Below are positions 60,203-64,000 of a stretch of DNA of 64,000 bases, one piece after another. Source of the stretch: Phyllosticta citribraziliensis (Eukaryota); NCBI RefSeq assembly GCF_038025025.1, contig NW_027117342.1:992001-1056000 (forward strand), in the 5' to 3' direction. Numbering within the stretch: position 1 is the first letter of the stretch; every line of letters begins with the position of its first letter. Below the pieces are notes generated by a model. The model saw only the letters and a list, made by a program, of their open reading frames with translations. It searched no databases and was not told the DNA's origin. Both the position numbers and the translations under genes were made by a program.

Positions 60203-61360
60203 ATGTCCACAAACGCAGGCTCTAGTATGTCCATTCTTCCTACGATGAGGTCTCAGCTAACCCTTGCCCAGGCCAATTCGAGATTGCCGAATCTCCAAGC
60301 GACGCCATTTCCTCCCTCACGTTTGCGCCGGGCGATTCCACGCGCCTATTGGTCTCTTCCTGGGACAAAAATGTCTACCTCTACGATACACACTCGCAAC
60401 CCGGTGGCGAGCTCCTGCGCAAGATTGAGTACCGCGCGCCTGTCCTAGAAGCATGCTTTGGCAAGGATCACACAGAGGCCTTTTCGGCAGGCCTAGACTG
60501 GGACGTGAACAGGTGGGCAGGTCCTCCTAGAGTTCCAAATATTGAAAGCTGACTGGTAGCGGTACAGGATTGACCTCGAGACAGGCGAAAAAACTGTTCT
60601 CAGCTCTCACGAGGCAGGTGTCAAGTCCGTCGTCTACAGCCCCGAACACACCCTTCTCATATCTGCTTCTTGGGATTCCACATTACACATCCACTTCCCA
60701 GAAGATACCAACCAGCCACCGGCTATAATTCAGCTCCCCAGCAAACCTTTCTCGCTTTCCATCACCGCCACAAAGCTCGTTGTCGCCATGGCCTCTCGCA
60801 ACGTCCATATATATGACTTGAAGTCATTGCAGATGCTCGCTTCCGAAATCACTGAAACCACTACTCTCAGCCCAGAGCCCTGGCAGCGCCGGGAGAGCTC
60901 GCTCAGATTCATGATAAGAGCCGTGGCCTGCATGCCAAATGACGCTGGCTATGCTACGAGCAGCATCGAAGGGCGTGTGGCTGTGGAATGGTTTGACCCA
61001 AGCCAGGAATCACAGACGAGAAAGTACGCATTCAAGTGCCATCGCCAACAAATCAACGATGTCGATACAGTCTACCCGGTCAACGCGCTCGCATTCCATC
61101 CAGTTCATGGCACTTTTGCTTCCGGAGGAGGCGACGGCGTCGTTGCTCTGTGGGACGGTGTTGCCAAGCGAAGAATCCGCCAATATCAGCGGTATCCTGC
61201 CAGCGTGGCTGCACTGTCATTCTCATCCAATGGCAAGCACCTCGCCGTCGGCATTAGTCCTGGATTCGAGGATGGCCAGGAGGACGTCGCGGAGGGTCTT
61301 GTCAAGGTATTCATTCGCGAGCTGGGCGACTCCGAGGCGAAGGGCAAAGGCGCAAAATAA
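60203..61360 (+). CDS. BUB3: Spindle checkpoint WD40 protein Bub3, 3 exons
   Basis: PSDAISSLTFAP...LLVSSWDK, QRRESSLRFMIRAV, SSIEGRVAVEWFDP, KYAFKCHR, YPVNALAFHPVHGTFASGGGDG. Confidence 0.95.
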
Positions 61361-62016
61361 AACTTTCTTCTGGAGTATGGAGTCGGTGCTGGCATACCCT
61401 TCTGGCCAGAAGAATGGCATCCATCGATCATCAAATGATTTTGACACAACACTACACCAATGCTCTGAACATGCTTTTAAAAAATGTGGTATGTTTTCTA
61501 CGTGATGGACAGATCTTGGACACGATCAATGCACGTCAGAAAATCTGTCTCACAATTCGCAAGAAGCGGGCTGAGTTCTCCAAAACTTTACTGCCTCAGT
61601 GCCCGTGCATAGACAGGACACTGCGGTGACGCGCCATTTTAGGTTCACGGGAGGGTTCTTCCGAAACCTACTCACCACCACATCCAACTTGTCAACCTAC
61701 ATGTAGTTGATTATGCTCTGAGCGTATTCCTGAATGTAAGCGCACTGGCGAATAGCATTGCCTGTTGCAGACTACATGCAAATGATCCTAGTGAATATGG
61801 TAATAACTTCTTTCTTGTGAGAACCGAAAAAATCAAACAGCAAAAGTGCAAAGTGAAGGCGCTCTGGTTGGCGGTTTGCGTGGTTTGGACAGGCGAGGAA
61901 GGTATATCCGAGGCTCGGATGTGGCTCTCGCTTAAACCTGCCTCTTCTCGTTCGCGCTCAATCAGGTGCCGCCCGCAACAACCATCGCGAACTCCAACAA
62001 CCACCAGTCAACAATC

Positions 62017-62952
62017 ATGGCTTCGCAAACGCCACCCAACTCCACGTAAGTTGTATTCATGTCTAAGTCGTCTCCGCTAGCTAACAGCTCACAGTGTCTA
62101 CGTCAGTATCTCGGTCAGAAATGCGCCCGCCCTGCTAACGCCCCAAGCAGGTCAAGAACCTCGAGGAGCGCATCAAGATTCCCGAGTTGAAGGAAGCGCT
62201 GCTCGAAATCTTCAGCGAATATGGCAACGTCATCGACATTCGCGCAGCGAAGAACCTCAAATCCAAGGGACAGGCTTTCGTCACCTTCGAGAATGTAGAG
62301 TCAGCCGCGCGCGCCATTGAGGAAATCAACGAGTTCGACCTCTTCGACAAGCCGATGAAGCTGGATTTTGCCAGGACTCGCAGCGACGCGACTGTCAGGA
62401 GGGAGGGCAACGAGGAGGATTTCGAGGCACACAGGCGCCGAAGGCTTGCGGAGAAAGGTACATCTCAGATCCCATTGCACTGCGGGATCAGATGGGTCCT
62501 TGCTTTGCGTTTTGACGTGTCGCTCTTTGGTGAGTAGTATGCTTACACATGCAACAGAAAGGAAGCAGGCCATCGAGGCCCAGGAGAAGCAGAAGCAGTT
62601 GAAGCGTCCTGCGGGCGCTCCCGCGCAGCCCGAGAGGCCCGCCCAGAAGGCGCGTGGTGCTGGCCTCAAGTCGACCGGCGCTGGAGGCGCTGTCATTCCC
62701 GACGAGTATCTCCCGCCCAACAAGATCCTGTTCGTGCAGAACCTGCCCGATGGCTACGATGTCGAAGCGCTCTCGGCCATCTTTGGCCGCTTCGAAGGCT
62801 TCAAGGAGGTCCGTCTTGTGCCTGGACGTGCCGGCATTGCCTTTGTTGAGTACGAGGCTGAGTCTGGTGCCATTTCCGCCAAGGAGGCCACTGCTGGCAT
62901 GGCGCTTGGTGATGAAGGCAAGCCCGTCAAGGTCACTTACCAGAGGCAGTGA
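62017..62952 (+). CDS. U1A/U2B''-family snRNP protein (two RRMs), 4 exons including a 7-nt microexon
   Basis: Spliced PPNSTVYVKNLEERIK...KGQAFVTF...FDKPMKLDFARTRSD and PPNKILFVQNLP...FKEVRLVPGRAGIAFVEY. Introns 62046-62094, 62102-62150 and 62458-62557. Confidence 0.95.
62448..62508 (+). promoter_or_regulatory. U1 stem-loop II-like U1A-binding hairpin overlapping the intron 3 donor
   Basis: GATCCC-ATTGCACTGC-GGGATC (62468-62489), extended by CATCT/AGATG, AAGG/CCTT and GCGGAG/CTTTGC pairings. Confidence 0.8.
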
Positions 62953-63103
62953 GGAAATCTGTAGATGGAACAGAGGTTGCATTGATCAAGGTAGGGGTCA
63001 CAATCATTGAAGCATGAGGCGCCAGAGATCAAAACAAATACAATTTACAAGTGCTCCAGTTTTGGGCTGCTCGCATCGCGTTCATGTACATAATCCATCC
63101 GCA

Positions 63104-64000
63104 TCAGAAAATCACGTCCTCATTATCCTCATCTCCCAAGAGGTCCTTCGTCTCGATTCCCTCAGCCCGACGTTCAGCTTCCTCCGAGGCCGCAGCCCGT
63201 TCCTTCTCAGCAGCAGCAGCATCACGTCCCTTCTTGCCCGAAACCTTCTTCAGCCTATAGAACTCTTCTCTGTCGAGCTCATCCAACTCGGAGTTGATGT
63301 AGGCAATGGTGTTTTCGGTACGAGGAATGATGACGTGTTCGCTGAACTCTTGTCAGTTCAAGGAACAATGCGACAAGCGCCAAAGTTACAACTTACATGG
63401 CATTCACTCTGCGGTTGACAATCTTGATGACTTCGTCCAGAATAACAAAGGCCGTCTGCAAGCTGGCCAGCTCGACGAGCGTCTCAACTGCGCGAGCATA
63501 TGTCTCCCTACATCTTTGGACCTGCTGTCCTCCCTTGCCCAGACCTGTGAGGCCAAAGTCGTTGGCGCCTTCGACTGTGAAGCTTTCGAAAGCTGGGAGG
63601 AAGACACCGGACACATTTTCCTGCTTTGTGCGCACTCGGAATTTGGCATTCTTCGCAGACTCCTGGATCTGGTAGCTGATGTCACCGCCGGCTGCGTATG
63701 TGACTTCGGCGAGGGAGAAGGCCGCTATCTGCATGACACGGCCCATCTTGCGCTTGGCTTCATCGATGCGGCGTGTGATCTCTACACGTATCTCAGTATC
63801 TGTGTCTCGGCCGCGGTGGCTGGAGTCGTACCTCGGAAACGCCTGTGCCAAATATGAGCATGCAAACAAGAAAGAGGGTCATGGCAGATGGGCGCACTTT
63901 GTCAGGGCCTCACTCTTCCTCTTCAGCAGGTCGTGACCGATTTGAGCTCCCTTGAGCTTGCTTTTCATCTGACCCAACGCCTGCCGCGTCGGGAAGACCG
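63104..64000 (-). CDS. VMA8: V-type ATPase subunit D (5' end outside window), includes an 11-nt microexon
   Basis: VFPTRQALGQMKSKLKGAQIGHDLLKRKSEALTKRFREITRRID, ENVSGVFLP, GLGKGGQQV, ELASLQTAF, NRRVNAIEHVI, ELDELDREEFYRLKKV. Confidence 0.97.

Follow-up and report, generated by a model that had tools for sequence, protein, structure and literature searches.

A U1 snRNA stem-loop II-like hairpin over splicing signals of Pezizomycotina U1A genes: a candidate autoregulatory splicing switch

We analysed a stretch of 64,000 nucleotides (nt) of the Phyllosticta citribraziliensis genome (contig NW_027117342.1, positions 992,001 to 1,056,000 of the forward strand; the whole stretch is called the window, and positions are counted from its first letter). 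We found that a gene of the U1A/U2B''/SNF family in this window carries in its third intron a hairpin resembling stem-loop II of U1 small nuclear RNA (snRNA), the outer helices of which are predicted to lie over the weak 5' splice site (donor) of that intron. Hairpins with the same or nearly the same loop recur in the U1A genes of other Pezizomycotina, where one arm overlaps a donor or a branch site. We consider it probable that U1A in its free form locks this hairpin, so that splicing of the pre-mRNA from its own gene is blocked. What is established is the anatomy of the gene, the fold prediction, the recurrence and covariation of the hairpin, its exclusive location in introns of this gene, the specific retention of intron 3 in RNA contigs and the premature stops in the hairpin-bearing introns.

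Results

A predicted U1A site over the donor of intron 3

Within positions 62440-62520, the minimum free energy (MFE) fold and the centroid fold are the same, at -27 kcal/mol, and they comprise four helices. The innermost joins GAUCCC (62468-62473) to GGGAUC (62484-62489) and is closed by C62473-G62484; beyond a CA bulge, CAUCU (62461-62465, donor positions +4 to +8) pairs with AGAUG (62490-62494), followed by AAGG (62455-62458, donor positions -3 to +1) with CCUU (62498-62501) and GCGGAG (62448-62453) with CUUUGC (62503-62508). The original prediction, made from the letters of the window, had drawn a stem of 6 base pairs (bp) under a 10-nt loop with further helices across the donor, and this drawing is identical to the computed structure, correct in all its coordinates and pairings.

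ATTGCAC occurs seven times in the window against 6.4 expected by chance. The exact heptamer within a 10-nt loop on a stem of at least 5 pairs occurs once on both window strands, in intron 3, where a simple calculation gives a chance expectation per 100-nt intron of 1.4e-6 (Watson-Crick pairs only) to 1.6e-5 (with G-U pairs). A covariance model, described below, scores the hairpin at 29.5 bits with E 5e-6, the window's own row being included in that model. The sequence thus supports a hairpin with all the determinants of a U1A RRM1 site, namely the heptamer, the 10-nt loop and the C-G closure. At E <= 10, no Rfam family matches intron 3 or its hairpin within positions 61800-63200, where two weak matches elsewhere are noise, and at the gathering score no family matches the hairpin in a search of the whole window. 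Five hairpin-bearing loci from relatives, searched at E <= 1, gave only a chance s2m match (E 0.28).

By sequence, the gene product is a member of the U1A/U2B''/SNF family, an assignment that follows from its two RRMs, its closest structures and its closest named proteins. Pfam RRM_1 matches exon 3 (E 4.9e-13) and exon 4 (E 8.4e-12), and the best solved relatives of RRM1 are human U1A (E 6.2e-22) and U2B'' (E 7.4e-20), which agrees with the initial reading of a U1A gene with RRM1 and RRM2. The RNP1 core KGQAFVTF aligns with RGQAFVIF of human U1A, with human residues 14-111 covered by the alignment, and the RNP2 core is TVYVKNL, in which TVYV is supplied by exons 1-2. The closest database proteins are from Phyllosticta and are 97-98% identical, two of them being named 'U1 small nuclear ribonucleoprotein usp102'; the source names of relatives are mixed ('usp102', 'U1A/U2B''/SNF' and 'U2 snRNP B'''). 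Orthologues are 241-269 amino acids (aa) long and consist of two RRMs and a linker, as in the U1A/U2B''/SNF family at large (~240-280 aa).

Intron 3 is retained in RNA contigs

We used RNA contigs from four runs (X1, X2, X3 and X5), all of which contain spliced complementary DNA (cDNA) of the gene or of a close relative; X1 is identical in sequence, and X5, a declared RNA-Seq library, comes from a relative ~6% diverged. In X1, a joint skips 100 nt with GT..AG ends, being read as 62455 to 62556 with the cut 2 places further on, in agreement with the proposed intron at 62458-62557, of 100 nt with a GTACAT donor. Between the exon 3 and exon 4 contigs of this run stand two alternative contigs, a spliced one of 58 nt at depth 2979 and a retained one of 158 nt at depth 1969; the latter spans 62428-62585 and contains the whole of intron 3 with 0 differences. 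X5 likewise has a retained contig, of 146 nt over 62442-62585 with 3 differences and depth 5.4, beside two spliced contigs that start at the 3' splice site, with the end of exon 3 as a loose end, at depths 10-11. In X2, X3 and X5 no contig covers intron 1 or intron 2, one contig joining across both; in X1 the 5' part of the gene is uncovered. Retained contigs therefore stand beside spliced ones in two of the four runs, and, judged from rough contig depths, intron 3 is specifically left in a sizeable share of molecules.

Upon retention, the reading frame of the window continues as GTSQIPLHCGIRWVLALRFDVSLFGE and reaches a TAG at 62535-62537, 26 codons into the intron. The earlier claim that retention ends at this codon and removes RRM2 is upheld, the predicted product keeping RRM1 and lacking RRM2. 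In each of the 14 hairpin-bearing loci that we checked, translation through the hairpin intron ends after 17-66 codons, and in loci with an intron 1 hairpin this stop precedes any RRM.

The hairpin recurs in other introns of the U1A gene

Metagenome contigs were searched with an alignment of orthologues, yielding 293 confirmed relatives, and the 80 best of these served as our loci. The match ends at the last exon 3 codon in 80/80 loci, and 69/80 then continue with G/GT or G/GC (the slash marks an exon-intron junction), from which we take the position of intron 3 to be widely common. ATTGCAC downstream of exon 3 is confined to one of the 80 loci, L001. This is also the closest locus, with 78% RRM1 identity, and a quick tree places it as the window's sister with a Shimodaira-Hasegawa-like approximate likelihood-ratio (SH-aLRT) value of 90. 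Its intron 3 has diverged by several indels yet keeps TCCCATTGCAC.GCGGG.TCAGATGG; its donor, GTACTC, is also weak, and the predicted fold pairs donor positions -1 to +3 and +5 to +11. In a few other intron 3 sequences we observe UGCAC-like words, which are not in comparable loops and are not scored by the model. An invariant AUUGCAC loop in intron 3 across Pezizomycotina, which the original prediction had set as its check, was not found, and conservation of the intron 3 hairpin across this group is ruled out, L001 being the only one of the 80 loci to keep it.

The gene as a whole gives a different result. Besides L001, a hairpin of the U1 stem-loop II type, with AUUGCAC or AUUGUAC, is present in 37 loci; it lies in intron 1 or 2, and in every case it overlaps a core splicing signal. 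The expectation of orthologue conservation with covariation thus fails for intron 3, with an unexpected but favourable outcome for the gene, the covarying hairpins of these 37 further loci lying in intron 1 or 2. Partitioned by position, they comprise 25 + 2 loci at the intron 1 donor, nine at the intron 1 branch site and one at the intron 2 branch site. The donors that form the 5' arm are GUACGU, GUAUGU or GUUCGU, and the branch sites inside the 3' arm are CUGAC or CUGAU.

In the main class, of 25 loci, intron 1 starts as ...AC/GUACGUGUC-AUUGCAC(UCC, AUC, ACC, CCC, UGC, AUU or AUCC)-GACACGUAC, with a perfect stem of 7-11 bp the 5' arm of which is the 5' splice site itself, and a loop of 10-11 nt; AUUGUAC replaces the heptamer in 3/25 (L006, L007 and L009), and the RRM1 sequences have their nearest named proteins in Leotiomycetes and Sordariomycetes. 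In many cases the intron 1 loop is AUUGCACUCC letter for letter, the loop cited for the human U1A site. The second intron 1 donor class, L049 and L078 of a deep lineage, is built on a different stem, GUUCGUAC-AUUGCACAUC-GUACGGAC. The Dothideomycete-like L029 has GUUGUCAGC-AUUGCACAUC-GCUGACAAC in intron 2, just before the 3' splice site, with the branch motif CUGAC included in the 3' arm, and nine Lecanoromycete-like loci (the L065 group) have AUCAGCC-AUUGUACCU(U/C)-GGCUGAU in intron 1, with the branch motif CUGAU as the 3' arm. These hairpins are predicted in their sequence context with z-scores of -4.1 (L005), -3.0 (L049), -3.6 (L065) and -2.0 (L071); for L029 z is -0.3 in wider context, with the hairpin itself formed.

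Each hairpin class forms a single clade, and the seven labels need no more than the minimum of six changes in the quick tree, which has 102 columns and many unresolved forks and was used only for the class clades and the pairing of the window with L001. We also observe AUUGUAC in two lineages (L006, L007 and L009; and the nine loci of the L065 group), in hairpins that are otherwise intact and C-G closed. Only their location in U1A introns, together with stems of 7-9 bp and a C-G closure, makes these forms probable variants of the hairpin, and going by the sequence they may represent a weaker-affinity setting of the switch.

The hairpin is specific to U1A introns

Exact-heptamer hairpins with a stem of at least 5 pairs were found in 25 loci and the window, all in U1A introns and on the strand of the gene, and those of the loci lie 329-420 nt upstream of the exon 3 end. 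Outside U1A introns there are none in the 534,754 bases of the loci and both strands of the window (~660 kb). The covariance model was built from 27 hairpins and searched over 331 kb, where it gave 39 matches with E <= 3.9e-5, corresponding to 38/80 loci and the window; all are intronic and on the gene's strand, and they are matches by construction or duplicates of model rows. The next best matches in the 331 kb have E 1.1 and 6.1.

Hairpins with one mismatch in the heptamer also arise by chance: the loci have ~22 of them away from the gene and the window has 4, the majority on stems of 5 bp, and on account of this background they are unspecific on their own. A recurring one-mismatch match, gtgatATTGGACGAGgtcat, is seen on the minus strand of several loci (among them L020, L023, L031, L037 and L040), downstream of the end of exon 3 by ~1.07-1.5 kb; it probably lies in a conserved neighbouring coding region and was counted as background.

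Among 24 distinct rows of the alignment, the closing pair is C-G in 24/24 and the heptamer is constant, save for a change of C5 to U in two lineages, and the 3-4 spacer letters are free (UCC, AUC, ACC, CCC, UGC, AGC, AUU, CUU, CUC and AUCC). Changes on both sides were observed in 10/11 stem pairs. Paired cells amount to 84.8% as against 17-52% with slid partners, a percentage that is partly by construction because the rows were collected by a hairpin scan, and the covariation score was reached by 0/500 shuffles. Two facts are independent: the location is exclusive to U1A introns, and the heptamer and closing pair are kept over five unrelated stems. A U1A RRM1 site requires a C-G closing pair, and the three 3' letters of its loop are only spacers. 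As far as sequences can tell, the pattern of conservation is the recognition pattern known for U1A RRM1.

Gene structure and features of the window

Table 1. Coordinates of the U1A-family gene and of its intron 3 hairpin in the window.
Feature	Position	Strand	Basis
Coding region of the two-RRM U1A/U2B''/SNF-family gene (usp102-like), 4 exons	62017..62952	+	Pfam, structure and protein matches
Exon 1, coding part, ATG at 62017	62017..62045	+	Sequence; RNA contigs reach 62045, then join onward
Intron 1, GTAAGT...CAG, 49 nt, without a hairpin in the window	62046..62094	+	RNA joint; no covariance model match
Micro-exon TGTCTAC, 7 nt; completes Thr, encodes Val-Tyr of RNP2	62095..62101	+	Letters inside RNA joint, 3 runs
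Intron 2, GTCAGT...CAG, 49 nt	62102..62150	+	RNA joint; sequence
Exon 3: RRM1 and start of linker, ending ...RRRLAEK + G	62151..62457	+	Sequence, Pfam, alignment, RNA contigs
Intron 3, GTACAT...AG, 100 nt, weak donor, contains the hairpin	62458..62557	+	Sequence; RNA contigs
5' splice site region in extended stem: AAG/G (-3 to +1), CAUCU (+4 to +8)	62455..62465	+	Predicted fold
Core hairpin, stem GAUCCC / GGGAUC, C-G closing pair	62468..62489	+	MFE and centroid
10-nt loop AUUGCACUGC; heptamer AUUGCAC at 62474-62480	62474..62483	+	Sequence, fold, pattern scan
3' strands of outer helices: AGAUG, CCUU, CUUUGC	62490..62508	+	Predicted fold; block TCAGATGG kept in L001
Donor-like GTGAGT at 62530-62535, overlapping in-frame TAG at 62535-62537	62530..62537	+	Sequence, reading frame
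Likely branch site CTTAC	62542..62546	+	Sequence only, inferred from CTRAY consensus
Exon 4: linker, RRM2, stop TGA at 62950-62952	62558..62952	+	Sequence, Pfam, alignment, RNA contigs

The coordinates of the gene are collected in Table 1, in which the likely branch site of intron 3 is placed after CTRAY, the branch-site consensus. Exon 3 ends ...GCGGAGAAAG at 62457. A joint from 62045 to 62151 with TGTCTAC between its sides is present in contigs of X2, X3 and X5, and it is this confirmed upstream micro-exon that makes the intron at 62458-62557 the third. A matching 7-nt exon (NGTNTAY followed by GT) was seen in many Eurotiales-, Lecanoromycete- and Dothideomycete-like loci and is absent in the Leotiomycete- and Sordariomycete-like loci, which carry one 5' intron.

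Upon examining the annotated proteins of relatives, we observed several gene-model errors. The Phyllosticta protein P0001 misses the micro-exon and begins at a wrong ATG, and the Phyllosticta model P0003 translates 24 residues of intron 3 (GTSQIPLHCGIRWVLALRFYVSLF; window 62458-62529), which implies an intron of 28 nt; this insertion is very likely an annotation artefact arising from retained-intron RNA. At the position of intron 3, 20 residues are inserted in a Colletotrichum model (P0066). Many Aspergillus annotations show the U1A orthologue joined to tubulin-folding cofactor D in proteins of 1390-1453 aa (P0021, P0027, P0029 and others), and these are probably merged neighbouring genes.

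A donor-like hexamer is found near the end of intron 3 in both sister sequences, as GTGAGT 28 nt before the 3' splice site in the window and as GTAAGT 31 nt before it in L001 (position 80/110), and the block TTTGACGT directly before the hexamer is common to the two introns. The hexamer is too near the 3' splice site for use as a donor; it may be a remnant or else, in RNA that is still unspliced, a trap for U1. A real in-frame splice variant at GTGAGT 62530, as in one annotated Phyllosticta protein, was considered and is unlikely, the intron being only 28 nt and the L001 motif being out of frame (79 nt upstream).

Regarding the surroundings of the gene, sequencing-adapter letters stand directly before 62012 in an X2 contig and before 62008 in an X3 contig, which points to cDNAs that begin only 5-9 nt upstream of the ATG, and an X5 contig begins at 61995. 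The upstream neighbour is a WD-repeat-like open reading frame (60560-61360, plus strand). Downstream lies a convergent multi-exon gene (63104-64000, minus strand), the transcript of which is found together with the U1A 3' end on one long RNA contig.

Discussion

We propose that the intron 3 hairpin mimics stem-loop II of U1 snRNA, the natural target of U1A RRM1. When U1A exceeds the snRNA available, free protein would bind the loop and stabilise the hairpin; with the lower helices locked over the weak donor AAG/GUACAU, U1 small nuclear ribonucleoprotein (snRNP) could not pair and intron 3 would be retained. The retained RNA would be unproductive, since its stop comes 26 codons into the intron and RRM2 is missing, and it would be degraded, kept in the nucleus or translated to a truncated protein, with negative feedback on U1A as the net outcome. 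In other Pezizomycotina, either the 5' arm of the hairpin is the donor of intron 1, as in the loci of Leotiomycete- and Sordariomycete-like type and in L049 and L078, or the 3' arm is the branch site of intron 1 (the L065 group) or of intron 2 (L029). How splicing proceeds at all despite a donor stem of 9-11 bp may, as a guess, be a matter of a kinetic race during transcription, in which the donor is out ~20 nt before its partner strand. Binding by U1A, the blocking of U1 or U2 access, a response to the dose of U1A and what becomes of the retained RNA are what we infer. For the group as a whole, we lean towards the view that Pezizomycotina U1A genes hold a modular protein-locked switch, long kept and re-sited at least four times (intron 1 donor, intron 1 branch site, intron 2 branch site and intron 3 donor), with an arm rebuilt as the splicing signal each time.

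We weighed three other explanations. It is unlikely that U1A binds the hairpin with an output other than occlusion, be it buffering or storage on the pre-mRNA or lariat, nuclear retention or decay via GTGAGT, an effect on 3' end formation, or help to the weak donor. The strong evidence is that for the binding-site determinants, the direction of the effect being a proposal, and the donor-like motif 28 nt (window) or 31 nt (L001) before the 3' splice site could trap U1; yet one arm is the donor or the branch site in all five hairpin classes, which is hard to explain without occlusion, and it is because every class overlaps a core signal that we disfavour such outputs. A single intronic site is, moreover, unlike the two-site element of the vertebrate 3' untranslated region (3'UTR), a positive feedback would give no homeostasis, and the retained forms are abundant in the RNA contigs.

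Two explanations dispense with U1A altogether. Donor-sequestering stems lower splicing by themselves, and such a brake on the donor, independent of protein and leading to inefficient or temperature-sensitive splicing, would leave the likeness of the loop without function. This general knowledge, the weak GTACAT donor and a retention that was observed without information on U1A level are all compatible with it; we nevertheless regard it as very improbable, as a brake needs no special loop, yet AUUGCAC or AUUGUAC with its C-G closure is kept over five unrelated stems in three introns, and the spacers and stems vary. That the hairpin is unselected and holds AUUGCAC by chance would agree with the ordinary z-score of the fold, with a count of ATTGCAC in the window that is as expected, and with the ~1-10 such hairpins to be expected per 30-Mb genome. 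The expectation within intron 3 is, however, ~1e-6 to 2e-5, the core is kept in L001 where the remaining intron has diverged, and 37 further loci have the motif in the U1A gene with none outside, so that chance is scarcely credible to us.

Several points weigh against our preferred explanation, an occlusion of splicing signals by U1A-bound hairpins. The intron 3 hairpin is found in only 1/69 other loci having intron 3, namely L001, where the loop-proximal stem is only CCC/GGG and the MFE fold favours an 8-nt loop. A hairpin match is lacking in 42/80 loci, including all Eurotiales-like ones, the Chaetothyriales-like one and most Lecanoromycete-like ones; these 42 include L019, which is cut off inside the hairpin with the 3' arm visible at the contig start, and L030, L053 and L061, in which the 5' region is largely or wholly missing. 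It was the hairpin scan that supplied the rows for the covariation analysis. The fold energy in the window has a z-score of -1.56, with 13/200 shuffles equal or better, and of -0.32 in a 201-nt context, and as these values are ordinary the folding energy alone is no evidence. The human Arg52 aligns with a Lys in the window protein, and the RRM1 specificity of the fungal protein is assumed. As for the RNA contigs, the run type of X1 is only guessed to be RNA, although the run contains a spliced joint, X2 and X3 are uninformative on retention because neither has a contig over intron 3 or one listed across its joint, the contig depths are rough and do not prove regulation, and a last intron with a weak donor could be retained without any input from U1A.

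U1A RRM1 recognises AUUGCAC atop stem-loop II (PMC6325900), and a hairpin loop of the sequence AUUGCACUCC is bound by U1A with a dissociation constant of ~20 pM (PMC10466895). The fungal hairpins share with stem-loop II the AUUGCAC at the 5' side of a 10-nt loop, the C-G closure and the three non-specific spacers, and differ in lying in a pre-mRNA intron, with a stem dictated by splice signals. The closest known system is vertebrate U1A, which autoregulates through a polyadenylation-inhibition element (PIE) in the 3'UTR (Boelens 1993; van Gelder 1993; summarised in PMC5829640); there, two U1A molecules bind to a pair of heptamer boxes placed in internal loops, and poly(A) polymerase is blocked (PMC5829640). 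The protein family is the same, and in both cases a stem-loop II-like heptamer in the gene's own pre-mRNA would sense free U1A and exert negative feedback, which for the fungal element is a proposal. Unlike the PIE, which lies in the 3'UTR directly upstream of the poly(A) signal with two internal-loop boxes, the fungal element has one heptamer in a terminal 10-nt loop within an intron, and because its arm is a donor or a branch site, the affected step should be splicing. A PIE-like 3'UTR site is absent from the window gene, there being no ATTGCAC in its 3'UTR among the seven window sites and no hairpin-model match there, and the model of the vertebrate element, if it is in Rfam, did not match, given that no Rfam family did at E <= 10. 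In location, in the two boxes and in the curated RNA family model, the fungal element is thus distinct from the PIE.

The logic resembles that of yeast ribosomal protein L30. The pre-mRNA of L30 contains a structure that imitates the usual RNA target of the protein and takes in the 5' splice site region; when L30 binds there, splicing is blocked and the unspliced RNA is unproductive. The two systems have in common a target mimic in the own pre-mRNA that spans a splicing signal; the L30 element is a kink-turn internal loop in one gene and lineage, whereas that of fungal U1A is an RRM hairpin loop in different introns and on different signals per lineage. This splicing autoregulation is mentioned, under the gene's old name L32, in PMC5640933. 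Among core snRNP proteins, SmB holds its own level via unproductive splicing. U1C and U1-70K are cross-regulated by unproductive splicing as well (PMC3798272). These proteins resemble the proposed fungal case in holding their own level through alternative or unproductive splicing, and differ from it in using alternative exons and clusters of U1 binding sites, not a hairpin that mimics an snRNA site over a splice signal. A full-text literature search, with subscription-only papers outside its reach, gave no paper that describes a U1A site inside an intron of a fungal U1A gene, and the surveys of fungal structured RNAs in PMC5640933 and PMC8216456 have no mention of U1A, snRNP, MUD1 or usp102 in their main text. 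On present sequence evidence the kind of regulation would be one already known, autoregulation of an RNA-binding protein by target mimicry, in an intronic fungal U1A form that is apparently undescribed, a prior description being possible.

U1A is a textbook RRM protein and its vertebrate 3'UTR feedback is a classic, and autoregulation outside vertebrates has been reported absent, for example in Arabidopsis, whose U1A reportedly does not bind its own RNA (PMC5829640). For annotation, the observations imply that gene models around the hairpin introns are often wrong, as with the 24-residue insertion and the missed 7-nt micro-exon. If our interpretation is true, fungi too would balance U1A against U1 snRNA, by a mechanism of a different kind, and the element would be the fungal counterpart of vertebrate U1A autoregulation, with occlusion of splicing in place of inhibition of poly(A) polymerase. 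It would be a small natural RNA switch of ~30 nt that answers to one known protein, with picomolar affinity in the human pair, and it would serve as a model for the contest of RNA folding with the binding of U1 snRNP during transcription, besides offering a design template for the synthetic control of splicing. Finally, the element would move between introns with its logic kept, which would make the U1A gene of Pezizomycotina a natural case of a protein and hairpin pair that is easily shifted to any splice signal.

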